Shown piece after piece: positions 23,438 through 53,629 of a DNA stretch of 64,000 bases. The stretch comes from Nemertoderma westbladi (lineage: Eukaryota; Animalia; Xenacoelomorpha), in assembly GCA_032718475.1 (NCBI GenBank), contig JAUCBJ010008544.1, positions 1-64,000 on the forward strand, read 5' to 3'. Position 1 is the first letter of the stretch. Every line of letters starts with the position of its first letter. Both the position numbers and the translations under genes were made by a program. Below the pieces are notes generated by a model that saw nothing but the letters and a program-made list of their open reading frames with translations, was not told where the DNA came from and searched no databases.

Positions 23438-24029
23438 TGTGACGGGATCAGGGGATCCCGACTGGTTAGTTTTCGTTACGCGTCGCCGCTCGTTGTTATG
23501 AGAAAAGGATAATAGTTAGTTGTTGTTCTGATATTGTTAATGCAAATCACCAAATATAATATAATAGCAAGAAATATATATGTAATGTTAATGAATAAGA
23601 TATAATAACGTTGTACCGGTAGTGGCGGTGACGGCGGTGACGGTACGAAAATGTCACCTAACTGCACTAATTAATGACTGAGTAAACTGAACAACCGACC
23701 GGTAGCAGGACGATATATATATGTATATAATTAGTACACCACTACGGCCTTCGTCCAGTGGATACTCTCCCCCCCGCTCTCATTGGCTGTTGGCCCACTT
23801 CACGCCTCTCACCTCTGTGGGAGTGCTTCCCCCCCGCTGCTGTTACTTTCCCTCTCCCAAGAGGTTTGACCTATAACCCCTTTTGTGTGGCTCTTTGGGG
23901 CCTTATGTTGTGCCCGTTATTGGGGGTGATACGAGGTTGATTGTAATCAACCTCGTACTCCCCAATATTGCTTAAAACGCCACTTCCCAACTTTATGGGG
24001 TCGGTGGGGCGGAATTGAATCCGCTCACA
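23438..24029 (-). repeat. 3' LTR of element A (592 bp)
   Basis: tgtgacgggatc...gaatccgctcaca; matches 52061-52646 with about a dozen substitutions and two indels. Confidence 0.95.
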
Positions 24030-25542: not shown

Positions 25543-28452
25543 CTACGGTGCCCCTTCTAGCAGGCAGCACTTTCCTACAGCCCTCCTGTAGGTCTTCCTA
25601 TCTTTCGCTCCTATCTTACCACCTATCCGCACTTCCACCGATTGGACTCTTCCGTCCTCGTCGGAGTAAGTGTCCACTACTCTTGCCAATCTCCATTGAT
25701 TGTTAATGATGGTGTCGTCCGTGACGATCACCAAATCACCCTTCTTTAACTCCCCAGTGGTATTTCTCCCCTTGCTCCTCCTATGAAGTGTGGGTAGATA
25801 TTCCTCGACCCACCTCCTCCAGTATTCCGCGCTTATCGCCTTAGCGACTTTCCAACTCTGTCGGGAGTGTATATCGTCTGGATCTACACCCCGCATGTCG
25901 ATGGTCGCCAGCCTCTCCATTAGAAAGTGACTGGGTGTCAGCACATCTAATGACTCTGGGTCATCATTTTCTGGGTATAGCGGTCTGCTATTAATGATAC
26001 CCTCGCATTTAGCTATCACCGTCCTTAGCACATCTTCTGTCACCATGTGGGTGTTCATCAACTTCGTCATCAGATGCTTGGAACTACCCACGAGTGTCTT
26101 GACGCATCCTAAAGTATGCGGAGCATACGGCGTCCTCCTCTCCCACTTCACCTGTCGTCTTCTCATGGCCTGACTTCTCATGCCCTGACTTCCTCCCCTT
26201 CCAGGATGTCCAAGGCCTCTGCCAGCTCGTTCTCCGCCCCCACAAAGTTGGTTCCATTATCGGAGTATATTACTGCGATCGTCCCACCTTTGCGGTCTCT
26301 GAACCTCTCTAGGATGAACGCATTGATGAATGCCGATGCGGTTGCGTCTTGGGCGAGTTCTATTCCTACCGCCCACGTGTTGTTACATACGAAGATAATG
26401 CCGTAGCGCTTCTCCGTGTGCCGCATCACCTTAATCTTTATCGGCCCGAACATATCTACACCGCAGTGCGTGAATGGCGGGTCGTGCTGTCTCACCCTGC
26501 TGGCCGGTAATGGCGCCATCTCCTGTACGGCCCGCTCCTTCCTCGTCCGTCGGCAGGTCTGGCACTGCCCCACTACCGCCTTCACCTTCTTTCTTAGTTG
26601 TGTGATCCAGAAGGTCCTCCGTATCTCTGTGAGGGTCCGGTTGGTGCCCCCGTGCAATATCGACTTGTGGGAGTCCCAAATGATCTGGTGGACTATCGGC
26701 GATCTATTTGGGATGATGATGGGTTTCGGTGGAATAATGAGGCTGTTGTTATTTAGCACTCTGGAGTTCATTACTAAGATCCCATCGTCGTTGAGTTGTA
26801 GCGACAGCGTGATGAGCTCGCTGTCCCGACGAAGATGTTGTTGTTTACCAACGCGCTGCATTTCGTCGCCGTAGTTCTTTCTCTGTTCGTAACGGATCAC
26901 GGGCTTGGCCGCTCCCTCCAGATCGATGTTTGGTTTCTTCTTGGTGTCTTTGCCGACTCCCTTGAGGAAACCCCCAAAGGCTCTCCAGTACGCCACTAAC
27001 TTCTTGGTCTTGTACCAACTTGAGCTGTAGCTGAGGAGTTTGTCCGTCGGGTTATCACATGGTTCTTCTGGTTTTTGTTGCACGTCCCTGATCTCCCTCA
27101 CCATCTGACTATATATCTCTTCACCTTCTGAGTCTCCTCCCTCTTCCTCTAGTGTTACCTCCTCTGAGCCTGGGTCCACCTTCTTCATCGGTGGCCAGGC
27201 CGTCTTATCGTTCAGGAACTGTGGCCCGTGCTGCCACAATACTTCCTTCCTTAAGAAAGTGTGGCGTGCCACGCCCCTTGATAACAAGTCCGCTGGGTTC
27301 TCGTCCGTTGGGCAGTAGTGCCACCTCTCCAAGTCTGTCGTCGCCCTTATTTCGTCCACCCTATTTGCGACGAATATAGGGTATCTCGTCTTCTCATTGT
27401 GTAGCCAACCAAGCACTACCATGGAGTCCGTCCAGTAGTGTGTTTCCACTATGTTGGGAATGGTGTCCATCAAGTAGGTTATGGCCCTTACTCCTAACCT
27501 CCCAGCTGTCAACTCGAGTTTTGGGACCGATGCTGAATCTTCCGGTGTCGACTTTGCTTTGCTGAATGCAAGTCTGGGCTTATGAGCCCCCTCTTGTTGT
27601 ACTAGGTAGAGTGCCGCTCCGTATGCTTCTAATGATGCATCGGAGAACATGTGTAGATCCAGAACCGTCATGTCCCCATACGGGAAATACACGCGTGGCA
27701 TGCTGTACATCCCCATCTGTTCTAAACTCCCCGTCCACTTACTCCACTGCTTGCTGATTTCTTCCGGGACCTCTGTATCCCACTCGTCCTTTAACTTATA
27801 TACTTTCTTAAGTATCTGTTTCCCCGTAACTAATAGTGGGGATGCTGGCCTAGGGGATCGTATATCCTTGCTATGTACGATACATAGCCCCTCTTTGTGT
27901 GGATGTCCGCGCCCTCCTGGCTCAGCTGGTACTTGAACTCGTCTGTCTCTCGGTTCCACACGATACCCAACGCCTTCTGCTGGGACTCTACTCTCTTGTT
28001 CGCCATGTCCTGTCCCTTGGCTGTCGTGGGATTATCCATGGTTGACTCTGGCCTCCTGTCCTCTATGGCTCTCATAAACTCTTCCGAGCTGGACTGGAAC
28101 TTGGTCAGGTTAAACCCGGATCCTTTCAGGATGTCGCGAACCTCGCACCCTGTATCCAGTAGTTCTTTAACCGTGTTTCCAGACTCCATCCCGTCATCTA
28201 CATAGAAGCCGCGTCGAATCATATCGACGGGTTTGGCGCTGTATCTCTCCTCTTTCCCCTCTACTGTGTCCCTCACAGCCACAGTCATCGTAAATGAGGA
28301 CGACTTGGCCCCCATATTCTGCACCACCATCTTGTACATCGGTATTGTCGACGGTTCCTCGTCGCTGTTGTACCATAGGAAGCGCTGGCTGTCACTATCC
28401 TCCTCCATTACACGGACTTGGTTGAACATGCCTTCAATGTCGCAAGTGAAGG
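25543..28452 (-). pseudogene. Element A pol, C-terminal part (RT C-half, RNase H, integrase); disrupted
   Basis: FYVDDG, FSDASLEAYG, YWTDS, NPADLLSRG, H..H...C..C, GVDMFGP, YSDNGTNFVG, INSRPL...LTPSHFL, WRRWVEEYL; split by a frameshift (~27900) and a stop/frameshift (~26180). Confidence 0.9.
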
Positions 28453-28590: not shown

Positions 28591-28665
28591 TCTCGTGGCG
28601 TAGTGGTCAGATGGTTAAGGCGTTGGTTACATTACGTAGGTTACGAGTTCGAATCCCAGTCGGGA
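28591..28665 (+). ncRNA. tRNA-like Pol III unit inside the 5' LTR of element B
   Basis: A-box-like TGGCGTAGTGG (28596-28606), B box GAGTTCGAATCCC (28645-28657), terminal pairing tctcg/cggga, TTTT at 28674-28677; the anticodon arm is not canonical. Confidence 0.55.
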
Positions 28666-28711
28666 AATTTGTATTTTGGGGCCATTTATTTTCGTGTGTT
28701 GCTAATTGGTA

Positions 28712-28985
28712 GGCCAATGAGAAGCGTACAGCGTAGCGAATGATGAGCCAGGCCAATCATAGGGCATAAATTATCTTATTGCTCAAATGTGAGGCAGTGG
28801 AAAATTCTGTTAGGATTCCATGTCCCAGATTAGTGTAAGGGCTGGACTGCGTTGAACGATGAGCTGGGCCAATCATAGAGCACCGAAGCACTTCATTGCT
28901 CAATGGTGAAGCTGTGGAAAATTCTGTTTAGTTTCCATGTGCAATTTCTAGTATAAAAGGCCGGTTTGCCTTCGGTTATCACACT
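28712..28985 (+). promoter_or_regulatory. Pol II promoter of the element B LTR: three CCAAT boxes (two in a ~116-bp duplicated module) and TATAAAA
   Basis: gccaatgag (~28713), gccaatcatagggca (~28752), gccaatcatagagca (~28868), tataaaagg (~28953). Confidence 0.6.
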
Positions 28986-31634
28986 CTCTGTTATCATCCT
29001 GATATCGTTTATTCTTGTAAAATTAGTTAATTCGGTTTCTTGTTGAAACTTTATTTGATAAATCCTTTTGTAAAACTGTAAATATACTGCAATTTCCTGA
29101 CATGTTTTCTTTTGGTCCGACTTCGGGACAGCCGAACACCAGGGAGATGGCAGCCTAGATCGTTAGGCCGTAAGCAACGCAGGGAAGGGATGTCCACAAC
29201 ACGCTAGCGCCCACATTGGATCGACCGCGCACCCCCTTTGCCCCTTCGAAATGCTCAACTTGCTATGCAGCGCCCGCTTTGTGAGAAGGTAAGACTTTGT
29301 TCGACGCCCTTGCCCGCCGTAAGACCTATAGATCAGGGTAAGCGTGACACCGTACTGGACGCCGCAAATTTAGGATCAAATAATTATATCCAGACACCCC
29401 CCCCCCCCTTTGTCAGTCCTACGAATCCCTGGGTTAACCTGTACTTCCTACAGGTGCGAACTATTGCCATTCGTCAGTACGCGAGTACATATTAGGTACG
29501 GACAGCATACGTTCCATAATTTAGTGATTCATAGCACTGACTGTTTGGTACCGGTTCGCTTTGTAGAACGTACATTAGTACCCCCCCCCCCCCTGTCTGG
29601 AGTTAGCTATTTGATCAGGCAAGGAGCATTTCTGCTACCGGCACACTGCTTGGCCTAGGGAGGTTTATTAATATCCTACCGCGCCTTGCCACGTACTGAT
29701 AGGTATTGCTGCTAACTACCGCAGCAACAAAGTTCTAGAATTAAATTAGTATACCAGATCAGCTAACGTACGGTAGCGATTAACCCCTATTCTTATCTTA
29801 CAACCAGAATCTGGTATTAGTGCCGATCACGGGTGTAGTTACTAACACTGTGGTTGCCCATTGGGTTGTGGATAGGAAGGAGAGAGCTTTGACGTCATTC
29901 GTGAGTATAAAGTTCTACAAACGCGACTAGTTTATTTTAGTAGCTAGCGCACGGTATCATTTAGTCAGAAAATCACTAAAACCTAGTAAAAGGAATTACA
30001 CGAAATTGTTTTATTTGTAACACACCCACACACACACGCCCTAAAACATATCGCCCTTAAAGTTCTACTAGCTATAGCGTACTATACATTACTTTAGGTG
30101 GAAATTATCTGTATTTGTAAAATTAGGATCTGATTTAGTTGCGGCAAGATAAGGAGTATTTCACTTTCGTTATTAAACTGTTGTTTGTCTGGACAACGGT
30201 ATTGTTACATTTAGGCCTGACCTTTTAGACTGATTTCGTACAGGGGGATCAGTTATTGTTACATTTAGGCACGACCTTTAGGCTGATTTCGACAGGGATG
30301 ATCAGCATTGTTACACTAGGTCTGTTAACCACCTAGTTCGTATATAACCCATATAAATCACACCGCGGCAAGTTACTGTATTTAGGACTGTCAGTGATAG
30401 TTAGGATTCGCTGCGCGGGGATTGTTTTCCCGTGAGTTTGGTCTGTTACTGTAACTGTACATCTGCCTCACCGGTTAGAGGACAGGTATCCTTCTGTCTA
30501 GTACGTAGGCATTAGACCCGCTCACGTACATAGAATAGATACAAGGCTCTGTTCCTCGCCAGTAGTCGTTTGTGTACTATATCTGTTTGTTTAGATATCC
30601 TGGACTGGGATTTGTTGTCAGATACTGTACAAGCCCGTATACATTACTAGAGTCTCATAGTAAGATACATCGTTACTAGGATCTGGTAAGCGGTATACTA
30701 CTGGACCCTTACAGTAGGAAGTATATTATACAAATTCTGAAATTAGTGTATAGTATAGTTTAGATCTGCTAGCTATTGTAAGTAGGAGATATTTAAAAAT
30801 TTAAGGTTAGTAAATTTAGTAATTTAGAACGTCCCCTGCTTCAGTAGGCTTTTAGGGTAGCTAGTACTTTCGTATTTAATATTTGACTAGCTAACAGTTA
30901 GTTTGTAGCACTTTGTTTTACGCCGTGTGTGTGCGGTGTTACTTTTCGGTACTTGAAAAGGTACATAGGGTTTAAAGACCAATTTGTATCGGTACCTAGG
31001 AAGATTTTTCGTAAGCGTAGAAGTAAAACTCTCACCTTCGACCTTTTCAGGACTCAAGGACTCATTTCTGGACCGCTTCGAGGATTAGACCGCTTTTCGC
31101 AAAGTTTGGGAGACAATAAATTCGTCCGCGCCGCCGAAAAACGGAAAGACCCACGTCCGGTTTGTATTTGGGAATTTGTACGACTGGAAGATCAAAGGAA
31201 CGTAAGTTTTACGACTCGCGTCGTTCAAACTTAAGAAAGCACAGTAGTACTCAAAATTTGTGGGTTTCACTGTCTATTAGTAGTGTTGTTGGTACTTATT
31301 TTCCCGTTAGACGTTGCTGTTTGGCCTATTGTTTATACTTGTTGATCTACATTTTGTTAACGTATATCGTTATCTCACTTATTCGTACAAATTTAGCCGG
31401 TAGGCTAGATTACTACTTATTTTATTATATACCTTGTTAGTTTATTTGTACCGGTTAGGGTATATATATGATATATATATATATCAAGGTAAGTTTGACA
31501 TTTGTACATTTCGACATTTTGACATTTCGACATTCTGACTTGTTGATTTATTTGTACCGGTTAGGTAAGTTTAACACTTCAACATTCAGACACTTTGACA
31601 TTTTATTATCCGTACTTGACGTATATAATAAGAC

Positions 31635-34600
31635 ATGAGTGACATACCCCATTCGACGAGATACCCACCTACCGACTATGACTCGTGCGACCCGGACAGA
31701 TCGACAGTAGACGAACCGAGAAGGAGAACCCGAGATTCCACCGATGTCACACCGCTTGCGTCGCCGGTACCCCGAACGGAAATACCGGAAACCGCAACGC
31801 GTGGCGACGGCAGAATCGAAGATTTCCTTACCGTCCCGCAGACTAGATCGCGGGAACCGGACATGGTAAGTTCGACTGGAAGCCAGGAGAACGTTATTAG
31901 AAGTATAGGAGGACACATGGCCCAGATTACTCGGAACCTCGGAGAAGGTTTTCGCGTTTTACGCGAGTTAACCGCCCCGATGTCGAGATACGAGTTCTAC
32001 ACCTTACAGGTAAGGATAGAAAGTAGGGTACATGCCTCCGTAGATAAACTTAAAGGTTTGCACGAACTTGCAGAGTTGCGTGGCGACAACTTTACTCAGG
32101 TAAAGATAGTAGATAAATTGGTAAGTGCGAGAGAAAGCCTTATCCAGTTTAAGTCGGTGATAAGATTGGCTCAACAGGAGCAGTTTGACCAACTGCTAGG
32201 TGAGTCAGTTTCGGACGCGTTGTTACAACCCGAAGAGGAAGAAGAACTCTACTGCCTGGACGGAAGGTTGGAAACGCTGACCAATTTTCTTCGTAGATGC
32301 GGCGTACCGATCGACGAACCGGAAGTCGAACCACGAGGGACGACGGAAGTTCTCACTACGGAAGGCTCGCGAGCCTACCAACATCCACCACTGGATAGAT
32401 CGTTCGTTAGCGTACGGAGCGACGTTGGCAACGTTGGCGACGTTAGTAGAACAGCGTCTGGAATTACTCGACAACAACAGGAGGTTGCACGCCGACAACA
32501 AGTCGCCGAGGAAGAAGCGCGACACCAGATGGCACAGATCGCCATCGAAGGAGAGAAACAACATAGAGAGGACGAGGCAAGAATTGCACAACTCAAGGCG
32601 CAAGCCGAATTCGAAGCTTCGGAAATGCGCAGACTGGAGGAGGACTTAGCGCGAGAAGCGGCGGCAGCAGCCGACGAGTTAGCACGGAAGAAAGCAGCAT
32701 CCGATGCTCGTGCCAAGTTGGAGGCGCGACAAATAAACGCACGATTAGCTATACAGGAAGCGGAATTAGCGGCACAACAACAAGTAGCGGATCGACGCGA
32801 AAGGGAGATGCAACTACAGTTCGAATTGAATCGTAGATCGCGTGAGACAGCGAACGCGCAAGCGGACCTCGAACTCGACGCGAGAGATAGATCTATAAGA
32901 TCGCGAACTGGACACGACTTGTCTGCCCTGGATCGTATGGAAGCTCGATATCGCGGAATACAGAAGCGGATCGAGGAAGGAAGTGTGGGAGCGATAGATC
33001 GAGGAGAGGAGTTCGTCGAGGATTACTGTAAACGTTTTCCCCAAGTTATTCCTATGCTCAAACCCACGACTCCGATAAAACCGGTCTTCGTTACGAAACC
33101 TAAGGAAATAACGCCTGTGCGTTCGACGCAAGGCAACAGGTTTGTTGTGACGGAATTACCGCAACCTAGGGCGACTTCATCGCCAATTTTAGCAGGTAAC
33201 ATAACTAGTCCACCTACAGTAAGTCGTAGTCTACTTGTAGGAAGAGAGGAACCTGCGTTTATGACCATTAAACAGGTGAGTAAACCATTACAAGTTAAAC
33301 CTGTGACGTGCTGCGCGAACCCAGTCATTTATAAACCTACAGTAGACCTTAACCCTGATGTTTTTACTAGACCTCTCACCCAATGTTTAACGAGACCTAC
33401 GACTTCGTGGAAGGCTTGCGAGCCTGCCGAACAACGGAGAGCCGTAGATCTCAGATCACAACGAACTCGACCAAGGATAATACGCCGGACGCGAACCCGC
33501 CAACCACCTTATCCGGACGACAGCGATTCATCCAGTGACTTGGAGTCGACGGAACGGGAAATATTCCGTACTGGAGCGGCAGCGGCAGCGGATTACAAAC
33601 GGGAGGAACGATCGACGAACCCCTATATTGACAATCCTCCACGAGAAACACCCCAACAGAAACCCACGTTGCAACCAGCGGAAACGATCAGCGCCAAACA
33701 GTTCACCGAGATGACGGACAGAATAGCTCAACTCGAAGAACGACTCGAAGCGCAACCGTCGGATCGATCTCGAACCAGCGTGGAGTTGGAACAACCTAGA
33801 CAACATCGACCACCGAGGAGAGAACAGGAGACTAGACGGACTCCGACACATCGAGAAGATGATCCCGTTAATAATTCCTACCGACGAACAACGCGCGGAA
33901 GGGAGCGACTGGACGACGCCGCCGAACAGGGACGCGGACAGTTGGATTTAGTTAGCGAGATTGCGAAATTCGCGGCTAGACACGGATTACCGGCACAGCA
34001 ACCGCCGAAGTTCTCTGGCAACGCGAAACACTGGCGCACACTGGTAGACTACGTAGAGTCCCAGATCGCTAAGTGTGCTTTCACCTCGACGGAGAAGTTT
34101 AACTACTTGCTCCAAGTTCTGTCTGGTGAGCCGAAACGATTAGCGGAAACCTTTATTGGTGTTCCCGATGCCTTTGAGTTGGCGTACGACCGTTTGTATT
34201 CGATTTACGGCGGTAATGTCGCCATGGCTAAATCCATCATTGAAGACCTCTGCAGAGGAGGCAACATTTCGAGACCGATCGACCTTTTACGACTCGCGGA
34301 CGAAATAAAGAACGCTATAGGGACTTTACGGTCCATTGGACAACTCGAGTACGCTAACGCACCGACGGTTCTCATTCGAATAATCGGTCGACTTCATCAT
34401 CGACTACGACGAGAATGGCGACGCATCGAGTACCAACGCGAAGAGGCCGGAGGGTTATTAAAACTCACCGATGTCTATCAACTTATTTCACGGGAGGCCG
34501 TGATCGAGACTCGATCGAACTATACCGATCACCATATCGCGGCGGAAGGGATAACTGTTTCTGCGCCGAATCGGACAAAACCATTTCCGACGAACGCGAA

Positions 34601-37600
34601 AGCCGTTACTTACGCCACCCCTACTGAGACTTCTAAAGTTCTGACGCCTATCGGCACCACGCAGCCACGACAACAGTTGCCGGCGGACTTTGTGGGATGC
34701 TCATACTGCGAGCGGAACGGCAGAAACCATAGCGGACATAAACTACGTGGATGTCGCGCTTTTAAAGAGTTAGGGATCGAGGAAAGGAGACTCCAAATCC
34801 GATCTCTAGATTCCTGTTGGAGATGTATGAAGCCAGGACACGTCCGGAAGGATTGCCCGAGCGACGATACATGTTCTTTGTGTGGACGTAACCATGACGC
34901 GTTGCTTCACACAACCAGTCATACTCCGACCAGACGCTTTCGACGAGAGCATCCAGATAAAGCGGCTAGATGCGACGCGCTTTATAAGGAGCGTGCGCCG
35001 CGCGAGATCCGTACCTTTTATACCGACTGTATGGATCAGTCAGGATCATCGGACGAGGACGAGGAGGAAGACGACACTTTCTACGTGCATGCAGGTGAGG
35101 AACAGCCATCGATAACGCTCCTCACACAGAACCAATTGAAAGGGTTTAGCGTGATTCCTATAAAGATTACCGGAACCCGAGGGAGCAAGCGTATATACGC
35201 CATCTTAGACTCTGCGTCATCGCATAGCTATGTCGACGAACAAGTAGCCGACGTAGTTACGGACTTGAGTCAAGGTAAGACTGCTCAGTATACTGTAAGC
35301 AGCATGCATGGTAAGAGAGCGATTCCTGTGACGAGAGTAAAACTAACCTTAGACACTCTTCTTTCCAAAGCGGAACACAGCAAGGAGGAGCGCTCATTAC
35401 TTCCGGTAAGAAATTTGACCTTTGCAGCTACGAAGGACTTTAGTAACTTGCTCGGCCCTGTGCCAGAGCAATCACCGGAAGATCGTAAGTATTTCCGACA
35501 CCTTGGAATACCGGAATGTCCTGTCAATTATCGTTCCATTGCGATGTTAATTGGGACAGACCAGTTTAACTTACATCAGGTATGGGAGACACGCCCATCT
35601 GTTATTACAGCAGGCAACCCCTACGCATGTAGAACTCCCATAGGTTGGTATACTAGAGCACCAATACGTTCACTAGAGGTAAGTGACCAGGAGGACGACG
35701 TTTTGAGTACGTGTAGTTTATTGACTAACACGATAGATAATTCTCCTTCACACTCCTGTGGTCCAATTGTACGGACGGCACTACGACAGACTTGCGTCAC
35801 TAACGCGGACGCCACCGATACTGACGTAACCGATCTGGACACGACCATACGGACCTCTGACTTACAACTACTTGCAGTAGACCAGGTTGTATTGACTACT
35901 GAAGACCTGAGGGTTGTTGCTGTGGATGACTCGATGAACGAGGATTTTGGAAGGCTTGCGAGCCTACCGAAAAATCCGAAGGTCATTGACCCCACCCACC
36001 AGGCTTCGACACCGGTCGTTGATCTTGGAAGGCTTGCGAGCCTACCGATAGATCAAGAAGTTGTCAAACCGCCGCACGACAATTCGACGCCGACTAGTGA
36101 CACCGGAAGGCTTGCGAGCCTACCAGACACATTGACACTAGCCACCGCAGCGGACGAAGACGTGGACGAGGACCATGGCGCAGTGCAAGCAGCGTTTGAC
36201 CGACTGCTGACTGAACGGACCATACAATGGTTGGAACAGGACTCAGCAGAACCCGGTAGTTACGAGACCGCTATGTCAGAACAGGAAAAACGGTCATTAA
36301 ATATTATGAGAGATACCATTCGCCAGACTGCGAATGGCCACTATGAGGTTGGTATGTTGTGGCGCGATGGACAACCTAAGCTCGTTAACAATTACCCGCT
36401 TGCTTTGAGGCGACTCAAATCAATAAGGCAGCGATTGTTGCGAGACGAGACGGCCCATATGCAATACAACGCACAACTTCAGACGTATCTCCAAAAGGGA
36501 TACGCCATTAGGATGTTAAATCCTGAGGTAACTACAGACCAGACATATTACCTGCCACATCATTTTGTTCGACACCCGGACAAACCTGGCAAGGTGCGTG
36601 TAGTCAACGACTGCGCTGCGCTTTACCAAGGGATGTCTATGAACAGCGAACTGATGGACGGGCCGAATATGAATAATTACCTCATGGGAGTCCTAATGCG
36701 TTTTAGACAACGCAAAGTGGCTTTCACCTGTGACGTAGAGGCCATGTTTCACCAGGTTAAGGCTTTGGAGCGGGACAGGGACAGTTTGAGGTTTCTTTGG
36801 TATCCGGACGGAAACTTACAACTTCCGCCAGAAACTTACCAAATGCAGGTAAGAGTATTCGGAGCCAGGGACAGCCCCAACTGCACCATGTACGCATTGA
36901 AGCAGACAGCATTGGACAGACGAGACCAATTTGACCCAGAAGTAGTTCGGACCGTGGAACGAGATTTCTACGTGGATGACGGCCTCAAGAGTTGTGACAC
37001 CTTGGAGCGCGCTACAACCGTAGCACACCAACTCCAGGATTGTCTCGCTGAGGGCGGATTTCACCTGACGAAGTTCGCTTCCAACGAACCCGAACTGGTG
37101 AACTCATTTGACCCGACGGATCGTAGCGGAGGTGACTTGGACTTAGACCTAGAACCTCTGCCGACGACCAAAGTATTAGGACTTAGTTGGGACCCTAACA
37201 CCGACAATTTTAGGGTACGTGTAAGGTCCAACGACCAGACTAGACCTCTCACTAAGAGGACTTGCTTATCGACTATGAGTCGATTGTATGACCCATTGTG
37301 TTTCATTAGTCCAGTGATCCTACATGCCAGGATCATACTCCGCAGCATTTGGCAAGCCGGACTGGAATGGGACGATCCCATCCCAGAAAAGTTAGCTGAG
37401 CGATGGAGGGACTGGGAAGCCCAACTGACGTTCCTACAAGACTATACCATACCGAGGGTATACTTTCCTTTACAAACCACCTTTCCTGCCGATTTAGAGC
37501 TTCACAGCTTTAGTGACGCTAGCAAGGATGGATTGGGGGTTACTTTATACCTTAGACGACAAGTGACATCGGACAGCTACGATGTGTCTCTCGTTACTTC

Positions 37601-40400
37601 AAGGGCTAGAACAATGCCATTGAAGTATATGACTGTACCTCGTGGGGAGCTGCAAGCCGGGACGATATCCACCGATATTGTCAGTCTAGTTCAACGCGAG
37701 CTGGAGGCTAACTTGAAGGTCACATATTGGACGGATGCGACGTTGGTACTTTGGTACATAAACAACGAAACATTCGAGTTCAAGACTTTCGTAGCCAACA
37801 GACGGGCTGAAATACTAGACCGGTCGCTCAATCAAGATTGGCGTCACTGTCCAGGGAAGCTGAACCCAGCTGACATCGCGTCACGGGGAATGCAACCACT
37901 TGACTTTTGTAAACCGGACAATAAATCCTTTTGGTTTAGAGGACCCGATTTCCTACAGCGACCATCAGACGAATGGCCACCGTTATTCGACGCGACAACC
38001 AACACCATACCAGAGGGTGCCGAGATAAAACTCGACAAGGTTGTCAAGTCTAAAGCGAAAGCCAACGCCAAGGTCAAAAGGAAAAAAGGACGGACGAAAT
38101 CTGATGACCTGGACGCCAGACCTGACATTACGCCAGACGTCTCGCCAGACACTCGACCAGACGCTTGTACGAATCCTTCGCCGGATGTTCCGCGGGAGAT
38201 TTCACCAGACGTTTCGCCGGATTGTTCACCAGATTACTCGCCAGACTATTCACCAGAAGAGACACCAGATTGTTCTCCGGATTGTTCGCCAGATTGTTTG
38301 ATGGAACTCTCGACAGAATGTCTACCGGACGTCTCACCAGACTGTTCACCAGACATCTCGACAGACTGTCCACCAGACTGTCTACCAGACTTTGAACCAG
38401 ACTTTCTGACAGAAGTTACGCTAGACAGACTTTGGGACCGACGACAGGACATTTCGCCGGATGTTCCGCGCTATGTCTCACCAGACGTCTCACCAGACTG
38501 TTCACCAGACGCTTCACCAGACTGTCTACTAGACACTCCATTAGAAGACCCATTGGAGCGGACATTTAGAGACGTACCAAATTCGACTTCTTTGGACGAC
38601 AGAGATGTGGCCACAGGGATTACACTCCGCTCGAAGAAGGTACTTGACTTACCTACAGGTAAACGTGTGACTAAGGTTAGGAAGCTTACAGGCTCACAGG
38701 AACACACTGACGCTGTAGAGTTGAAACCATTACTGCCAGTCGACACATTAGGTGCGGACGGTAAAGGTAAGACCGTAGAGATTGACGTACTTGGGGACTC
38801 AGACAAACCTACCGGAAGGCCCGTGGGCCTACCAAGTCCAGACAAGTATCCACACTACGACTACACCTTACCCGATGACGTCACTAACACTTACGTTGAC
38901 AGGATAGTGAACCTAACTAGATCATGGACTGACGCGTGCCGCAAGTTAGCATGGCTCAAACGATTGAGACAATATGCCAGAGGCAAACGCGACTTTCCTA
39001 GAAGACTTACCTTAAAGGAAATTGGCCACTGTGAAGTTGATATCATTCGACATTATCAATTGCGATATTTCGCACGAGAGTTCACAGCGATCAAACAAGG
39101 TAAACAGATTAAGTCTTCACCGATTTTGAGTTGGAGTCCGATTATTTACCGGGGCTTACTTTGTCACAAGTCCAGACTCCAAAACATCGACTTTGCACTT
39201 GACTTTAGGTATCCTATCATCATACCGCAACACCATGAGTTACAGCGCGCTATGATACTGGACGCACATGTACAACTCAAACACGTAGGTAGACACCACT
39301 GTCTATCACACTTACGCTCGAGGTTTGTACTGATTAGACCTAGTAAGGCACTGAGTTCAGTAACACGGAACTGTATTATTTGTAAGAAGGTGCACGCGAG
39401 GATAGGACACCAAGAAATGAGTGAACTACCACTAGCAAGATTACAGGCGTTTAGACCCCCTTTCACTGAGACAGGGATAGACTGTTTTGGACCCATAATC
39501 GCGAAACGCGGAAGGGTACAGGTAAAACGTTGGGGATTGATCTTCACTTGCATGGCCAGCAGAGCTGTCCATATAGAGCGAGTGACAGACTTGTCCACCA
39601 ATGCCTTTATCCTAGCCTTACGGCGATTTATCGCTAGACGTGGATTGGTCAAATCCATATACTGCGACCAAGGGACAAACTTTGTGGGTGCACGGAACGA
39701 GATAACCAGAGCTTTGAGAAAATTGGACCAAAACCAGATTTCCGAGGAACTACGTCCTCACCGTATTGTTTGGTTTTTCAATACTCCAGACAGTCCGTGG
39801 AGAGGCGGCGTTTGGGAAAGGCTGATTGGCTCAATAAAGACAGCTATGGCTAAAGTCGTACCGACGCAACACATCTTGACAGACGACCAACTGACGACGT
39901 TACTAATAGAAATCGAAGCAATCTTAAATACCAGACCGATCGCTTTGATCCCAGACAATAACGACGTACAGTTTGCCTTGACACCAGCGCACCTGCTTAT
40001 GCAGGCGCCGACGACACTGTTGCCCATTTCGGTACCCGTTGATAGTGACGGATACGGCAACAAGGCTTGGAAAATCACTCAATTGCTTGCAAATAAATTC
40101 TGGGAAATATGGCAGAAATATTATTTGCCCTCTATTTCGACCAGAACCTCTTGGTATCTAAATACCCGATGTTTAAGACGTGGTGACCATGTTTTATTGG
40201 CTGAAGCTAATCTGAAAAGACGGTTTTGGCTGACTGGAGTCATTTTGACCACGCACCCTACATCTGGTGTAGTGAGGACAGTTACTGTACGGACTATCGA
40301 CGGTCGTACCGTAGACAGACCTGTACAACGTCTCGTACTCCTTGAGGAGACTAGAAACGAGACGGGAGACTACAAATCTCCACCCAATATTAGTAAATAG
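31635..40400 (+). CDS. gag-pol: BEL/Pao Gag-Pol polyprotein (coiled-coil Gag, triple zinc knuckle, aspartic protease, RT, RNase H, integrase), 2921 aa
   Basis: PPKFSGN, CSYC...H...C / CWRCMKPGHVRKDC / CSLCGRNH, AILDSAS, YYLPHH...KVRVVND, FTCDVEAMFHQV, FYVDDG, FSDASKDG, YWTDA, NPADIASRG, GIDCFGP, YCDQGTNFVG, GGVWERLI; uninterrupted. Confidence 0.97.
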   Translation: MSDIPHSTRYPPTDYDSCDPDRSTVDEPRRRTRDSTDVTPLASPVPRTEIPETATRGDGRIEDFLTVPQTRSREPDMVSSTGSQENVIRSIGGHMAQITRNLGEGFRVLRELTAPMSRYEFYTLQVRIESRVHASVDKLKGLHELAELRGDNFTQVKIVDKLVSARESLIQFKSVIRLAQQEQFDQLLGESVSDALLQPEEEEELYCLDGRLETLTNFLRRCGVPIDEPEVEPRGTTEVLTTEGSRAYQHPPLDRSFVSVRSDVGNVGDVSRTASGITRQQQEVARRQQVAEEEARHQMAQIAIEGEKQHREDEARIAQLKAQAEFEASEMRRLEEDLAREAAAAADELARKKAASDARAKLEARQINARLAIQEAELAAQQQVADRREREMQLQFELNRRSRETANAQADLELDARDRSIRSRTGHDLSALDRMEARYRGIQKRIEEGSVGAIDRGEEFVEDYCKRFPQVIPMLKPTTPIKPVFVTKPKEITPVRSTQGNRFVVTELPQPRATSSPILAGNITSPPTVSRSLLVGREEPAFMTIKQVSKPLQVKPVTCCANPVIYKPTVDLNPDVFTRPLTQCLTRPTTSWKACEPAEQRRAVDLRSQRTRPRIIRRTRTRQPPYPDDSDSSSDLESTEREIFRTGAAAAADYKREERSTNPYIDNPPRETPQQKPTLQPAETISAKQFTEMTDRIAQLEERLEAQPSDRSRTSVELEQPRQHRPPRREQETRRTPTHREDDPVNNSYRRTTRGRERLDDAAEQGRGQLDLVSEIAKFAARHGLPAQQPPKFSGNAKHWRTLVDYVESQIAKCAFTSTEKFNYLLQVLSGEPKRLAETFIGVPDAFELAYDRLYSIYGGNVAMAKSIIEDLCRGGNISRPIDLLRLADEIKNAIGTLRSIGQLEYANAPTVLIRIIGRLHHRLRREWRRIEYQREEAGGLLKLTDVYQLISREAVIETRSNYTDHHIAAEGITVSAPNRTKPFPTNAKAVTYATPTETSKVLTPIGTTQPRQQLPADFVGCSYCERNGRNHSGHKLRGCRAFKELGIEERRLQIRSLDSCWRCMKPGHVRKDCPSDDTCSLCGRNHDALLHTTSHTPTRRFRREHPDKAARCDALYKERAPREIRTFYTDCMDQSGSSDEDEEEDDTFYVHAGEEQPSITLLTQNQLKGFSVIPIKITGTRGSKRIYAILDSASSHSYVDEQVADVVTDLSQGKTAQYTVSSMHGKRAIPVTRVKLTLDTLLSKAEHSKEERSLLPVRNLTFAATKDFSNLLGPVPEQSPEDRKYFRHLGIPECPVNYRSIAMLIGTDQFNLHQVWETRPSVITAGNPYACRTPIGWYTRAPIRSLEVSDQEDDVLSTCSLLTNTIDNSPSHSCGPIVRTALRQTCVTNADATDTDVTDLDTTIRTSDLQLLAVDQVVLTTEDLRVVAVDDSMNEDFGRLASLPKNPKVIDPTHQASTPVVDLGRLASLPIDQEVVKPPHDNSTPTSDTGRLASLPDTLTLATAADEDVDEDHGAVQAAFDRLLTERTIQWLEQDSAEPGSYETAMSEQEKRSLNIMRDTIRQTANGHYEVGMLWRDGQPKLVNNYPLALRRLKSIRQRLLRDETAHMQYNAQLQTYLQKGYAIRMLNPEVTTDQTYYLPHHFVRHPDKPGKVRVVNDCAALYQGMSMNSELMDGPNMNNYLMGVLMRFRQRKVAFTCDVEAMFHQVKALERDRDSLRFLWYPDGNLQLPPETYQMQVRVFGARDSPNCTMYALKQTALDRRDQFDPEVVRTVERDFYVDDGLKSCDTLERATTVAHQLQDCLAEGGFHLTKFASNEPELVNSFDPTDRSGGDLDLDLEPLPTTKVLGLSWDPNTDNFRVRVRSNDQTRPLTKRTCLSTMSRLYDPLCFISPVILHARIILRSIWQAGLEWDDPIPEKLAERWRDWEAQLTFLQDYTIPRVYFPLQTTFPADLELHSFSDASKDGLGVTLYLRRQVTSDSYDVSLVTSRARTMPLKYMTVPRGELQAGTISTDIVSLVQRELEANLKVTYWTDATLVLWYINNETFEFKTFVANRRAEILDRSLNQDWRHCPGKLNPADIASRGMQPLDFCKPDNKSFWFRGPDFLQRPSDEWPPLFDATTNTIPEGAEIKLDKVVKSKAKANAKVKRKKGRTKSDDLDARPDITPDVSPDTRPDACTNPSPDVPREISPDVSPDCSPDYSPDYSPEETPDCSPDCSPDCLMELSTECLPDVSPDCSPDISTDCPPDCLPDFEPDFLTEVTLDRLWDRRQDISPDVPRYVSPDVSPDCSPDASPDCLLDTPLEDPLERTFRDVPNSTSLDDRDVATGITLRSKKVLDLPTGKRVTKVRKLTGSQEHTDAVELKPLLPVDTLGADGKGKTVEIDVLGDSDKPTGRPVGLPSPDKYPHYDYTLPDDVTNTYVDRIVNLTRSWTDACRKLAWLKRLRQYARGKRDFPRRLTLKEIGHCEVDIIRHYQLRYFAREFTAIKQGKQIKSSPILSWSPIIYRGLLCHKSRLQNIDFALDFRYPIIIPQHHELQRAMILDAHVQLKHVGRHHCLSHLRSRFVLIRPSKALSSVTRNCIICKKVHARIGHQEMSELPLARLQAFRPPFTETGIDCFGPIIAKRGRVQVKRWGLIFTCMASRAVHIERVTDLSTNAFILALRRFIARRGLVKSIYCDQGTNFVGARNEITRALRKLDQNQISEELRPHRIVWFFNTPDSPWRGGVWERLIGSIKTAMAKVVPTQHILTDDQLTTLLIEIEAILNTRPIALIPDNNDVQFALTPAHLLMQAPTTLLPISVPVDSDGYGNKAWKITQLLANKFWEIWQKYYLPSISTRTSWYLNTRCLRRGDHVLLAEANLKRRFWLTGVILTTHPTSGVVRTVTVRTIDGRTVDRPVQRLVLLEETRNETGDYKSPPNISK

Positions 40401-41136
40401 ATGTGGGACCTTTGTTGGCCGCCACATAGACCTACTGTATTTTAGTTATTTGTATTTGTATTACTGTACGTGCATTTGTAATCCTCTTCACTGTAGATAG
40501 AGACAGCGGTGGAATTCCATTGTCTTTATACGTGAACATGGAGGGTAGTACCCTTATGTATCACATAGGAGCGGGATTGTGTGTACAGTAGGAATGGAAT
40601 TCCACTTGGAACCCACAAGTGAGACAATTTTCAAAAATTATTAGACAAATCCATTTAGTTGGATTTAAATTTAAGAAAAACGATTCTCCAGTGAAAGCAA
40701 ATTCTAGAATACAGCTAGATAAAATTAAAATTGGGGAGGACAAGAGCGGATGGAAGGCTTGCGAGCCTACCGATAAATTTTTTTTGGAAAAAGAAAATCG
40801 GTCTTGTTCTACGTAGTCGTGTCTACTATTATTTAGACCGAATTAATTCTCGACTGCACTATTTTTCTTGGGAAATGTAGCTTGGGAAATTAAAAGGTGA
40901 GTATTTTAGACTCGCGGCTAGTTTACCCGGAATTCGTTTTTTATCGGCACAATTTTTTGGATTAGGGGCCAGTGCGAAATCACGCGAACCCGAAGTCATT
41001 AGGCAAAATGGGTTGGGGTTTAGAGCAGAGTTGAGCCAAAAGCCAACAAACTCTGGAGTCACCTCACATCTAACCTCTATTTTGTGCTTCATCTAGTAGA
41101 AACGTAACGATATGTAACCGCATATATTCGTATACA

Positions 41137-43896
41137 ATGGTGGAGAAGATGTATAAAGAGTTACGTCAAGGGTTTACGCAAGAACAGGAGCACCAGGCAC
41201 CATTCAATCGTTATGGAGCTAAAAACTTTAGTGTGTTTGGAGTGGAGAGTATGGCTAGGAGTACGGCCAAGCTCGCTAAATCCAAGGCGGACCCGAATGT
41301 TACGCGACAGCGGTTGGACGCATACAACAAAAGAACGGAGGAATTACGCGCGGAATACAATGCGTTATATCCCTACGATGCGTTATGCGACGCTAGCGAC
41401 ATTTGCGAGGATCCAGACACCGAAATACGCCGATTGTATCATACGCTGCAATATTTGACGGTAAACGAACCTTTACCTGCAGCTAGAGACGAATTTGAAG
41501 GAATGCATCTTTATAGACGCGCTCGAGGAGCGGATCCAGAGACCAAGGACGCGTTTTCCGTATACAAACTGTTTTATAAATGTGGAGCGTGTATGCGCGA
41601 GCAAGACAACGCGATTCCTATGCGGTTGAACTCGGAGAACCCCGAGCCGATATTAGCGCGATGTTCACACCACCAAAGTCTACGTTACCAAGAAGGCGGA
41701 TACCCTTTGACAAATCCGTATCATTCATTTAAGATGAGTGGACCGAACGCGGGTGAGATCGTTATTTACGAACCTAAATTAGTCGAACCAGACGTCTACA
41801 GCATGGTAGTGGACGAGTCTAACAAGTCGACACAAGAGAAACGGGAAGCTTTGAGCCTCTACAGGGCGTACAAGGCGTACGAGAAAGGCGAGATCGAGGA
41901 GTTCGGCGGAAGGCTCAAAGGATACTTTAGAGAGTATAACACGCTAAAAACTGGGACGGGTTATATCTCATATCTGATGTTCAGTTGGGATTACAAGGAG
42001 AGTAAGAGGAACAAATACACGGACGTATACGGAGAGGGAGATACCCCCGGCGTAAACGAGTTCGAGTCACAGTTGAAGTGGCGAGGTTGCGTGTATTGGG
42101 CGATTACTTCACCTCCGCGGATAATCTTGCAATACTATTTAGCGATAGAATCTTCGGTTAACGTTTGTTTCATCGCGGACGTAGTATCCAGAACCTTAAA
42201 GCGACACCCGTTATGTCTTGGCGAAGGACATACCTTTTACGATGGAGGAAGGACGCATACTGATGTATTCCGACGATTTCTCCAACCCTTTTATAACACC
42301 GATGCGCACTGCGAAGTTTTCACGCGAGCGGGACTTAGCGTTTTCAGGGACGTCTATCTCACTCACGCGGGAAGTCTAGTCGACAGACCGTCGATGTTAA
42401 CGTTAGTACCCTATGACGGGGAACGCCACGCGGAATTCGAACGCCCGGAAGGATCCTGGAAGGCTCGCGAGCCTACCGCCCATCATGACGATGTGGATCC
42501 GACCGAGTTGGCGCTAATAGACGAACCGTTACGGCAACTCATAGAAATAGAAGAGAACCTTCCAAGGAAGACGCGAACTGAGATACGCGAGTTAGAGAAA
42601 AGCGATGCCATGGTTTGTGTACAACCTACGGAGACGAACATACCGACTGACCCGGATGATGAGAATTATCACGTGGACGGTAGCGCTCGCCCCATCGGAG
42701 ACCTCATCTATGAGCGAGTTTGGTATCCTGCCAACACTATTTGTGGCAGATGTGGAGCAACTGGCCATCACGCAAAGAAGTGCGGAGCGAAGCACATATC
42801 TCTACCGGATTTAGTATGCAACTGGTGCGGGGATCAACGTTCGCACACTTTCTACACTTGCTGGCGTTTCGTGGCGCAGTGTACTTATTGTAATATTAAG
42901 GGCCATAGGGCATCTGAATGTCAACTTAGAGACGTCCCCTATGAGCACATGTCAGTTAAAATCGTTCGACAATTATTCGACCATTGGGAGGATCTAGCAG
43001 ACGAGCATGTATCGACGCAGCGACGCCGCTTCCCTATGAGAGCACATTTGGGATTTTGGGCCGTAAACCCTCTCATAATGTCAAAGGAAGGATATGTATC
43101 GGCTATGCCTCAGTACGATGAATTGTTGGAGGTATTGGATATATTGCCGTTGGACAGTGGATTCAAAGTTGTGCGGGACTATTTCTTACAAGTGCACCCG
43201 GACAACAAGAATACTTGGAACTTTCAAACTGTGGTGAACAAGATTACCGCCGGAGAATTCGATAAACTGCGAGTTGAACAGCGGAATCGAGGAGCCTGGC
43301 ATTCGATAGCTTGGGCATACCGGAGCGCATTTTATCACAAACGCGTAACCTCGTGCATTCTGGACGAGACCGACGTTTTGCGTGAGACTGGCTTCAAGGC
43401 CACGCCGTTAGCGGAGAAGACGCGTCACCCACAGGATGATCAGCAATTTCGTATACTCAAAGCCCAGAAGGCCGGACAAGAGATTAAGAAGATAGTGAAT
43501 GTCGCCGAGAGGACGACATCGAAGTCGCAAATCCGGATGACTCGGGGCACGGTTTCCCTTGCTAGAGAACCACGCGGAGGGACAGGATACGCTTTGACTG
43601 AACCCATTAGGATTCAAACGACGTCAGAGAGCGAGGTGTCAACGGACGGAACAGTCCTACCCTTTCGACTTCCTCCTAGCGTTGTAGAAACTCGATCCGA
43701 TGTTAAGTCGACAGTTGGAATCGGACGAGGATTTAGAGGATTGAGCGCACGACGGATGTGCGAAACTCCCGTCGTCCCCTTTCCTAGCGTTTTGGAACCA
43801 CCGACGACTCGACGCCGAAGTCCGAGCCCAGTTCGACCTCGACCACCCCCCAATCGCACTAGAGGACGTGGACGAGCCCGCTCAGCGAAGGAATAG
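41137..43896 (+). CDS. Accessory ORF2 of element B, 919 aa, three CCHC zinc knuckles and an Arg/Ser/Pro/Gly-rich C-terminus; function unknown
   Basis: Long uninterrupted ORF between pol and the 3' LTR; CGRCGATGHHAKKC, CNWCGDQRSHTFYTC, CTYCNIKGHRASEC; good start context (acaATGg); upstream acceptor ctaac...ctctattttgtgcttcatctag (41070-41096). Confidence 0.85.
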   Translation: MVEKMYKELRQGFTQEQEHQAPFNRYGAKNFSVFGVESMARSTAKLAKSKADPNVTRQRLDAYNKRTEELRAEYNALYPYDALCDASDICEDPDTEIRRLYHTLQYLTVNEPLPAARDEFEGMHLYRRARGADPETKDAFSVYKLFYKCGACMREQDNAIPMRLNSENPEPILARCSHHQSLRYQEGGYPLTNPYHSFKMSGPNAGEIVIYEPKLVEPDVYSMVVDESNKSTQEKREALSLYRAYKAYEKGEIEEFGGRLKGYFREYNTLKTGTGYISYLMFSWDYKESKRNKYTDVYGEGDTPGVNEFESQLKWRGCVYWAITSPPRIILQYYLAIESSVNVCFIADVVSRTLKRHPLCLGEGHTFYDGGRTHTDVFRRFLQPFYNTDAHCEVFTRAGLSVFRDVYLTHAGSLVDRPSMLTLVPYDGERHAEFERPEGSWKAREPTAHHDDVDPTELALIDEPLRQLIEIEENLPRKTRTEIRELEKSDAMVCVQPTETNIPTDPDDENYHVDGSARPIGDLIYERVWYPANTICGRCGATGHHAKKCGAKHISLPDLVCNWCGDQRSHTFYTCWRFVAQCTYCNIKGHRASECQLRDVPYEHMSVKIVRQLFDHWEDLADEHVSTQRRRFPMRAHLGFWAVNPLIMSKEGYVSAMPQYDELLEVLDILPLDSGFKVVRDYFLQVHPDNKNTWNFQTVVNKITAGEFDKLRVEQRNRGAWHSIAWAYRSAFYHKRVTSCILDETDVLRETGFKATPLAEKTRHPQDDQQFRILKAQKAGQEIKKIVNVAERTTSKSQIRMTRGTVSLAREPRGGTGYALTEPIRIQTTSESEVSTDGTVLPFRLPPSVVETRSDVKSTVGIGRGFRGLSARRMCETPVVPFPSVLEPPTTRRRSPSPVRPRPPPNRTRGRGRARSAKE

Positions 43897-45707
43897 GAAG
43901 CGAGTGGAAGGAAGGCTTGCGAGCCTACCGATTTGGATATTATATTTGGATATTATATTTGGATATTATATTTGGATATTTTATTTGGATATTTATATTG
44001 GACATACCTAAAGAGGTGAGGTCTCTATAGGGGTGTGTCCAACAGGCGGCGGCGGACTCGTGAGGGTCTGGGGGCACGTTAAATCAATATATAGTGCTAG
44101 GGAGTCACTGAAGGCCCTCGTGTCTAGCGAACCATGAATCGACATGGTGCCGTGGTTCCGTCTAGTCGGCCTGTTGCCGTACTGCCAGTCCTGTACACAG
44201 TAGGGGTGGTGGCATGGCGTGATTTGTGGTTCATGTGGCGTGAACTATGTTTTGTATGTGGGCGATCAGTGGCAGTTTGCTTGGGGCTTGGATGGGTTCC
44301 TTTGGCCATCAGCTGTTCCGTTTTTTTGATACTATATGTTATTGTCTCCATGTTCAGCTGATTGGTCTTTGGGATTTGTTCGGGTCTTTGAGCTTTCTGT
44401 TGCTGTGGGTACGTGAGTACATGTGATTGTATGTGTGGCCACTGCGAGTGAGTATGGGAACCCTTGCCAGTTGGTCCAGATGCCGCTGGTATTAGTAGGA
44501 CCATATCTCTACTGCGCCTCAGCATACTTTGTGCACACAAAGTTATTTTGCCCTGTCGGCAAAATAAGGTACTCTCGATTAGCCTGTTAGTCGATACAAT
44601 TTGTCCCCTCTGATTTGACCCCGATTTTGTCTTTACCGATTTTGTCTCTGTGTGTGCATGGTATGTGTTCGATTTGTGCTTACCGTTGTGTACTTGATTT
44701 CGTGAACATCTGTTGAGTACACGTGTACAGTGACTGGTAAGTGGTTACTTGTTCAGTAGCTTTTGAGCTACAGACAGTATTGTCTTTTCAATACTGCCGG
44801 CGAGGCAGGTGAAAACGTGTCAAAATTCCATGTTGGGTAGCGCAAGCCCATGTGGGACAAGACCGTCGGTTAGGCCCAAGGGCGACCTTGGTGCTCGATC
44901 GCTATCGACTGGTCCACCTGCCGGTTGACTCTTTGTTATACTTTGAGTTGGCTCAATGTACAGTCAGGCCACAGTAAGTTGACAGTAGCCGCCCATCTGG
45001 CTACACGTTCGACGAGCTGTGCCGGTGTGATCGGGGGACCGAAAACAGAACCCGGGAAGCATCGGACCACCCTCCGGCCCAGTCTGATAATAACAAGCAG
45101 TCAGACTGGCCCCAGGGGTGGTGGAAAGGTGTCCGCCTTGTGGGTGCGCCTCCGGGAGGAGCCCAGAAGGACACAAGCGTATGTTTGAATGTTGGGTTTG
45201 GAGGAGCGAGATATGGAAGGAAGGCTTGCGAGCCTACCGTTAGCAATTAGTGCTCAGGAGAAGATATCCAGACCAGCAGGACGAACTTTTTAGATCGTCA
45301 GGAGGACTCATTTGAAAGTTATTAGCGCATTATGTTTATATTATATTTGGACAGATTTAATTTGGTGAAGGTTTATTATGTATATTTACAATATATAAAG
45401 ATTTATCGAAAGAGTTTGATTTATTTGTTCGATTTGTTTTGATTTATTTGTTCTGATTTGTTTAATTTGTTTACCTTGATAACCGAAAGCCTTTTTTTGT
45501 ATTTTAGGCACTAAAGTTAATTCGTAAATTTGTATTTGTATGTACGATCGATTGTATTTACGCCGTATCTGCAATATTAAGTATGCAATAATTAGATAGT
45601 GATTATATTTTATATTTTAGGCCCTACCAGTAAATTTAGAAATAGTTTGTAGATATTTTATATTTTGATTGGTGAAAACAGTCTTACTTACTGTTTTCAT
45701 GGAGCGG

Positions 45708-52060: not shown

Positions 52061-52646
52061 TGTGATGGGATCAGGGGATCCCGACCGGTTAGTTTTTGTT
52101 ACGCGTCGCCGCTCGTTGTTATGAGAAAAGGATATTACAGTAGTTAGTTGTTGTTCTGATATTGTTAATGCAAATCACCAAATATAATATAATAGCAAGA
52201 AATATATATGTAATGTTAATGAATAAGATATAATAGCGTTGTACCGGTAGTAGCGGTGACGGTACGAAAATGTCACCTAACTGCACTAATTAATGACTGA
52301 GTAAACTGAACAACCGACCGGTAGCAGGACGATATATATGTATATAAATAGTACACTACTACGACCTTCGTCCAGTGGATACTCTCCCCCCTGCTCTCAT
52401 TGGCTGTTGGCCCACTTCACGCCTCTCACCTCTGTGGGAGTGCTTCCCCCCCGCTGCTGTTACTTTCCCTCTCCCAAGAGGTTTGACCTATTACCCCTTT
52501 TGTGTGGCTCTTTGGGGCCTTATGTTGTGCCCGTTATTGGGGGTGATACGAGGTTGATTGTAATCAACCTCGTACTCCCCAATATTGCTTAAAACGCCAC
52601 TTCCCAACTTTATGGGGTCGGTGGGGCGGAATTGAATCCGCTCACA
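52061..52646 (-). repeat. 5' LTR of element A (586 bp)
   Basis: tgtgatgggatc...gaatccgctcaca; TATA-like tract at ~52332-52350 and Inr-like tcagtt at ~52305-52310 on the minus strand. Confidence 0.95.
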
Positions 52647-53517: not shown

Positions 53518-53629
53518 CACATGTCATGTGACATGTCATGTCATGTGTCACATGTGTCACACATGTCATGTCATGTCGTCTGTCGCGGTGTGAATTTATA
53601 ATTTGTACGGCGCGCATCCGATTAGTATT

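Follow-up and report, generated by a model that had tools for sequence, protein, structure and literature searches.

Element B, a BEL/Pao retrotransposon in the 64,000-nt stretch of Nemertoderma westbladi DNA analysed here (contig JAUCBJ010008544.1; hereafter the window), likely relies on some form of self-priming, and we lean slightly towards the view that it primes with its own RNA joined by host splicing across positions 29088 and 29417 of its long terminal repeat (LTR). Since this join gives the best pairing with the primer binding site (PBS), 18 of 19 nt, B likely starts copying from a cut piece of its own spliced RNA. Judging from the sequence, B is probably a self-priming variant in a family not described as self-primed, with a primer probably built by splicing.

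B is an intact, recent BEL/Pao insertion (Table 1). Its two LTRs are 99.4% identical, with 12 differing positions, and it is inserted in the pol gene of element A, another BEL/Pao element, which lies on the minus strand. The proteins of B can be assigned to BEL/Pao because DUF1759, Pao peptidase A17 and DUF5641 stand in one frame; the Pol motif order, read by eye, is PR-RT-RH-IN, and the integrase zinc finger of gag-pol fell below the profile cut-off, the other three families lying above it. The RT region is 39-46% identical to BEL/Pao proteins, the named homologues coming from cnidarians, echinoderms, a mollusc, a hemichordate and a nemertean, and Logan contigs from three DNA runs contain many variant copies of B. 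The second open reading frame has three CCHC-like knuckles and is not env-like by eye; a Pfam profile search of its 940 aa matched no family. Strong splice donors at 31489 and 31565, directly 5' of the gag ATG, could supply a spliced mRNA for this frame. Like Belpaoviridae, B has a Pao-type gag-pol, TG...CA LTRs, a 5-bp target site duplication (TSD) and a short purine tract, but it differs from the ICTV description of the family (an 18-nt PBS for tRNA-Arg or tRNA-Gly, LTRs of 0.2-1.2 kb and genomes of 4.2-10 kb; PMC8742986) in having no tRNA-type PBS, an LTR of 2261 nt, a total length of 19518 nt and an ORF2 without a Pfam match. The same source calls BEL/Pao replication 'poorly understood' (PMC8742986). 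From the position of the TATA box, transcription of B would begin near 28985, and with this inferred start both candidate primer sites described below would lie well inside the transcript.

Table 1 Features of elements B and A in the window (PBS positions count from the LTR boundary)
Feature	Position	Strand	Remarks
Element B	28453-47970	+	19518 nt
Left TSD GAAGG, element B	28448..28452	+	
Right TSD GAAGG, element B	47971..47975	+	
5' LTR, element B	28453-30713	+	2261 nt, TG...CA
3' LTR, element B	45708-47970	+	2263 nt
TATA box, element B LTR	28952..28957	+	three CCAAT boxes upstream: 28714, 28753, 28869
Exon-1 arm of predicted junction primer	29077..29088	+	pairs with PBS positions 7-19, one PBS base bulged
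Predicted GC-AG intron in B LTR, 328 nt	29089..29416	+	weak donor GCAATT, strong pyrimidine tract at acceptor
Exon-2 arm TCCTAC	29417..29422	+	pairs with PBS positions 1-6; 3' end is the proposed cut and primer end
Hairpin with contiguous complement 29442-29451	29437..29455	+	7 bp, 5-nt loop
ATTAAA, candidate poly(A) signal	29740..29745	+	3' of both candidate primers; another at 30172
Predicted hairpin, U5 end and PBS bases 1-4	30698..30717	+	z -2.26 for 30690-30760
PBS, element B, non-tRNA type	30714..30732	+	zero spacer after CA
gag-pol, one ORF	31635..40400 (frame 31632-40400, 2922 aa)	+	DUF1759, Pao peptidase A17, DUF5641
Second ORF of B, 3' of integrase	41074..43896	+	940 aa stop to stop
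Short purine tract adjoining 3' LTR	45701..45707	+	
5' LTR, element A	52061..52646	-	TSD CCCGA
3' LTR, element A	23438..24029	-	
PBS GTACGAAAAT, element A	52051..52060	-	directly after CA, not TGG
Contiguous 10-nt complement of its own PBS, element A	52262..52271	-	11-nt loop of 6-bp hairpin

The 5' LTR of B is followed directly by GTAGGAAGTATA, and TGG is missing from the first 17 nt of the PBS (30714-30730), in agreement with the first-pass annotation of this DNA, according to which B has no tRNA-type PBS. That annotation had proposed a self-primer within the LTR, and the complement it described was reproduced within the element: PBS nt 1-10 pair with 29442-29451, or 12 nt (29440-29451) if one G.U pair is allowed, the pairing ends exactly at the LTR boundary (terminal CA), and this site and its 3'-LTR copy are the only Watson-Crick complements of at least 10 nt to the PBS start in the whole element. 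Its chance estimate of about 0.002 was somewhat too low: a contiguous 10-nt match at offset 0 occurred in 97 of 20000 and, in another run, 35 of 10000 dinucleotide shuffles, and in 156 of 10000 once offsets 0-4 were permitted. The hairpin around the site, described as a 6-bp stem with a 7-nt loop, is really one of 7 bp with a 5-nt loop and is no steadier than shuffled sequence (z -0.95). An Rfam scan of element B found no RNA family. An ARAGORN tRNA call at 45357-45447 was considered as an element-encoded primer and rejected, given its 20% GC, an assignment that shifts with the settings and the empty Rfam result. Two X6 contigs (records 5 and 6) align with the window only over about 55 nt round the hairpin (29424-29483), both flanks being unlike it.

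A longer complement, missed in the first pass, is created if the LTR is joined across a predicted splice junction, and it lies 30 nt upstream of the contiguous site, with its exon-2 end at 29422. Positions 29081-29088 joined to 29417-29422 form 14 of 14 Watson-Crick pairs with PBS 1-14, starting at the LTR boundary, and past one bulged PBS base 29077-29080 pairs with PBS 16-19, bringing the total to 18 of 19. Shuffled sequences reached the 14-nt junction match in 9 of 10000 cases (37 of 10000 with offsets 0-4) and the 18-pair match in 1 of 20000, compared with 130 of 20000 for a contiguous score of at least 10; these junction nulls understate the number of tries, because GC donors and the bulge were allowed after looking, a GT-only rule having first returned the contiguous site. 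A GT donor at 29078 was rejected: it gives 9 bp only, and the GT itself is part of the longer exon-1 match. The acceptor at 29416, with 13 of 14 pyrimidines, is the highest-scoring of the B LTR in this respect, and its AG is kept in both LTRs. The hairpin segment had itself been read as a splice acceptor, and 29453 does combine a 10-of-14 pyrimidine tract with a branch-like TTAAC at 29434, but 29416 is richer in pyrimidines. Duplex energies were -21.3 kcal/mol for the junction vs -16.9 for the contiguous site, and -9.9 vs -3.3 with local context included. In the modelled spliced RNA (1488 nt), 11 of the 14 junction pairs had a probability of 0.56-0.75 and the three 3'-terminal ones only 0.18-0.47, with the pairing outside the minimum-energy structure and folds over 1.3 kb being unreliable. 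Taken together, the junction is more likely than not the site that B uses, and the contiguous complement put forward in the first pass is probably not the main primer, given that the junction pairs over 14-18 nt vs 10-12 nt and has the layout most frequent among the relatives described below.

The junction has weak points of its own. The GC donor of B, with T at +5, is much weaker than those of its relatives, no YTRAY branch motif lies near acceptor 29416 (29453 has one), and 1291 nt separate the primer from the LTR end, compared with 86-203 nt in the relatives and element A. The joint of 29088 to 29417 is absent among the joints listed from the Logan contigs (15 of 25). Both the donor and the branch motif would be of no concern if the two arms, 29077-29088 and 29417-29422, paired with the PBS without splicing, the intervening 328 nt being looped out, and the 18 pairs would be identical. 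We nevertheless regard such bipartite pairing as very unlikely: the interruption coincides to the nucleotide with an AG preceded by a pyrimidine tract, and in eight relatives with both a GT and an AG, and the unspliced 6-bp arm alone contributes only -7.5 kcal/mol. A second alternative, unlikely though not far-fetched, is that the PBS invades the hairpin in unspliced RNA, with a cut after 29451, and that the junction match survives from an ancestral intron with a decayed donor. The hairpin site offers 10 Watson-Crick pairs (12 with G.U) ending at the boundary, a match that few shuffles reach, and does not require the weak GC donor; moreover, a contiguous layout is found in element A and in 3 of 11 positive relatives, and the site of A likewise lies in a hairpin loop. 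However, this reading leaves the match of PBS 11-19 to exon 1 unexplained, the hairpin is ordinary among shuffles, and the hairpin-site pairs had a probability of 0.0 in every full-length fold of spliced and unspliced RNA. Under the junction reading, 29442-29451 would be a secondary or backup copy, mostly buried in a stem.

Diverged copies provide evidence in both directions on the junction vs the hairpin site. Two diverged contigs (X6 record 4 and X4 record 1, the latter from what may be an RNA run and at a depth of 2.2, where errors are possible) carry A>G at 29421 and therefore a wobble beside the junction primer end. The same two contigs have indels in the hairpin loop, that is, in the contiguous site itself, while the stem is kept, and AG 29415-29416 is without a listed change. 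At 30706, a loose-end cell, four X6 contigs (67% agreement) show a different LTR end and PBS. By eye, this variant PBS matches the altered hairpin site of record 4 better than its exon-2 arm, the copies being unlinked.

Element A, 30-34% identical to B in amino-acid sequence (about 31%), has a comparable arrangement. Its own-LTR match to the PBS is 10 nt long, ends at the boundary and was reached in 22 of 20000 shuffles; cross pairing yields only 4 nt for the LTR of A with the PBS of B, and 8 nt for the LTR of B with the PBS of A. Between A and B, 4 of 10 pairs are changed on both sides. In the predicted structure 9 of the 10 PBS pairs of A have probabilities of 0.85-1.0, with flanking helices. 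The idea that the primer is the 3' tail of an intron ending at AG 29453 finds no support as a general rule, in that CG, not AG, follows the primer site of A and the bases after the primer site vary freely across relatives. Three observations concern the surroundings of A and its PBS. By eye, a second, 12-nt complement of the PBS of A (positions 2-13) is present about 470 nt downstream in the leader (51576-51587, minus strand). A unit of the ~55-nt repeats in the B LTR (30229-30243) agrees with the PBS complement of A at 12 of 13 positions, 8 of them contiguous, with one gap, and AG comes next. A 36-nt tandem array surrounds the element (22041-23438 and 52638-53520).

The covariation of PBS and LTR in related BEL/Pao elements, the check proposed with the first-pass annotation, was examined in metagenomes, where the best 80 of 553 confirmed stretches, 38-44% identical to the RT region of B, gave 79 loci in 54 clusters. 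Among these, 34 loci with terminal repeats were inspected, 16 of them closely, and four were dropped: L025 (belonging to the L026 family), L067 (repeat ending within the LTR), L074 (repeat in coding sequence) and L071, whose 3' copy stops at the contig end and which was shifted to a second set. For the 12 remaining families the LTR end was set independently, by the divergence of the two copies. An own-LTR match of 10-15 Watson-Crick pairs at offset 0-4 was found in 11 of the 12 families from these best 80 of 553; eight match only across a GT-AG junction and three contiguously. Introns of the eight junction relatives measure 76-186 nt and their exon-2 arms 3-7 nt (6 in B), with GTAAG donors in 6 of 8; a GC donor improved the match in none of the relatives scanned (best 80 of 553). 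The family without a match (L070) was scored as a miss, although its repeat is without a final CA and probably does not mark the true LTR end; L020 and L079 are aged copies whose repeats are without a terminal CA. L005 and L009 have one PBS between them, so that the 11 positives hold 10 distinct sequences. In per-family nulls 0-36 of 2000 shuffles reached the match, and non-self LTR-PBS combinations gave at least 10 nt in 11 of 182 cases, two of them due to the PBS common to L005 and L009 and four to the long LTR of B. These counts exclude 36 remaining loci, 18 of which were scanned without a control.

For the 10 loci of the second set the match itself served to place the LTR end; all matches there were 10-15 nt, eight across a junction and two contiguous, with nulls of 0, 0, 0, 2, 3, 3, 7, 8, 18 and 37 of 100; restricted to offsets 0-4, 8 of 10 still reached at least 10 nt. 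Among the positives of the first set, 9 of 11 have a poly(A)-type hexamer 3' of the primer end and none has one 5' of it, a placement that would be required for strand transfer if R began at the cut. A scan of viral_contigs found no relative, and intron-less joined DNA copies of the eight junction families were found at 0 of the 79 loci (best 80 of 553). In a tree of 24 window and metagenome rows, where 10 of the 21 inner branches are open and A sits on a long branch, a junction-first and a contiguous-first history are not separated. L005, L009, L003, L012 and L006 have a common PBS core and post-acceptor exon-2 arm, with introns of 139-366 nt or more. By eye, 2-3 extra bases between the purine tract and TG accompany a 2-3-nt spacer between CA and PBS in L005, L009, L011, L020, L023, L026 and L048, and no extra bases accompany a zero spacer in L071, A and B, with L027 and L065 fitting less well; such a correspondence would fit a primer end that sets the cDNA end.

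This covariation of PBS and LTR gives good support to self-priming beyond the Tf1 group: A and 11 of 12 relatives (best 80 of 553) differ in their PBSs, and each of these pairs at the boundary with the LTR of its own element. The matches of B could in principle be due to chance, given that its LTR is long and that under a permissive scan 4 of 13 foreign PBSs reach 10-11 nt there. We give this explanation hardly any credence in view of the 18 pairs, which only a single shuffle attained, and of the like layout in A and 11 of 12 relatives from the best 80 of 553. Alternatively, the LTR-PBS helix may be structural, serving packaging, dimer formation or a translation switch, and the primer a host RNA such as a tRNA fragment, a spliced leader or a small RNA. 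This would agree with the ICTV, which classes the family as tRNA-primed (PMC8742986), and we consider it distinctly improbable: a structural helix has no reason to end at the cDNA end, Rfam points to no RNA family in B, and the PBSs of A, B and the 11 positives (ten distinct ones among the latter) have little in common past the first two bases, which are GT in A, B and 10 of the 11. Since these sequences differ and yet match their own LTRs, no single host RNA could match them all.

We propose the following course for priming by the spliced RNA of B. Transcription would begin near 28985, and the host spliceosome would remove the 5'-LTR copy of intron 29089-29416, joining the primer halves, whereupon the joined exons would anneal to the PBS (30714-30732). 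The element's RNase H would cut after 29422, as in Tf1, and the resulting capped 5' fragment of about 110 nt would be extended into strong-stop DNA beginning exactly at the terminal CA. This accords with the first-pass remark that an internal primer requires an extra processing step. All sequence upstream of the cut, including the intron, would be regained from the 3' LTR copy, which stays unspliced in the RNA. During plus-strand synthesis the primer would be copied and the PBS thereby rewritten in every cycle, which would explain the joint drift of PBS and primer. A junction family whose 3' copy lost the intron would become a contiguous one. As a tentative extension, which we hold to be somewhat less probable than not, a widespread aquatic-invertebrate branch of BEL/Pao may have abandoned tRNA priming in favour of a spliceosome-built primer from two LTR exons, such that only RNAs spliced in the 5' LTR replicate and the unspliced 3' copy transmits the intron; B, with its weak GC donor and hairpin backup, would then be an intermediate between the junction and contiguous types.

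The closest known parallels are Tf1 and Tf2 of Schizosaccharomyces pombe, Tj1 and the Tf1/sushi group of Ty3/gypsy, which, in the portions of the sources available, resemble B in having no tRNA PBS and an own-LTR complement of about 11 nt or more. In Tf1, the available text of two papers indicates, the first 11 bases anneal to the PBS, and RNase H releases the primer by cleaving between bases 11 and 12 (PMC7175516, PMC4600332). The Tf1 primer consists of the transcript's first nucleotides, whereas that of B would lie inside the transcript, some 110 nt past the inferred start once spliced; most relatives of B, unlike the Tf1 group, would have a primer only in RNA from which the intron has been removed. 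The Pol proteins differ as well, being of the Ty3/gypsy (chromovirus) type in Tf1/sushi elements and carrying Pao domains in B. Other departures from standard priming are known: in copia-type priming by tRNA fragments (anticodon halves) the PBS matches an internal part of a host tRNA, and some BEL elements of Caenorhabditis elegans reportedly have their own tRNA-like primer, a different solution from self-priming. Fungal GalEa Copia elements, with a 'conserved hairpin site', and PBS-less bivalve TRIMs are like B in that a canonical PBS is missing and an element-encoded substitute has been proposed, but as far as the accessible part of the source goes their structures are inverted repeats of the internal region, in contrast to the boundary-anchored pairing of B with its LTR or splice junction (PMC6934838). 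Priming of Oikopleura Tor elements on a spliced leader was considered as a precedent and dropped, 'PBS' denoting only a buffer in the accessible text of PMC4402516.

In the searchable literature self-priming is described for Ty3/gypsy only (Tf1/sushi, and proposed for Tcn1). A full-text search, beyond whose reach lay subscription papers, Repbase reports and supplements, found no paper on self-priming in BEL/Pao, and a prior mention in subscription papers or Repbase reports is possible. The terms 'PBS' and 'tRNA' are absent from the retrieved portions of two BEL/Pao surveys (PMC3118150, PMC554778), BEL/Pao self-priming is not mentioned in those of PMC3601003, PMC6934838, PMC10886601, PMC8220671 and PMC4402516, and a search combining intron, self-priming and splice junction returned nothing from the text it covered. 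If the proposal is true, self-priming evolved anew in a further family, where the primer is internal and in most members spliced; retrotransposition would be tied directly to the spliceosome, the elements would be independent of the tRNA supply, and the failure of PBS-based annotation on such elements would be explained.

Several further features of the window were recorded. Within B, a 12-nt tandem repeat (38129-38545) forms an in-frame SPD-rich insert in the RNase H/integrase interval of Pol. A tRNA-like segment with A-box- and B-box-like motifs is present in the U3 of both LTRs (28590-28680 and 45845-45922); ARAGORN calls it at a relaxed threshold only, and Rfam gives no match. It is reminiscent of the tRNA-derived promoters in Helenus LTRs, as the accessible part of PMC10886601 describes them, but B is autonomous. 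Elsewhere on the plus strand, 167-8122 encodes a 2651-aa Helitron-like Rep/PIF1 helicase with a C-terminal GIY-YIG domain, and 14810-16525 a non-LTR-type RT with DUF6451. An unbroken 367-aa sulfotransferase frame at 57354-58457 (+), whose named best matches are bacterial (about 41-48% identity), is a candidate for horizontal transfer.
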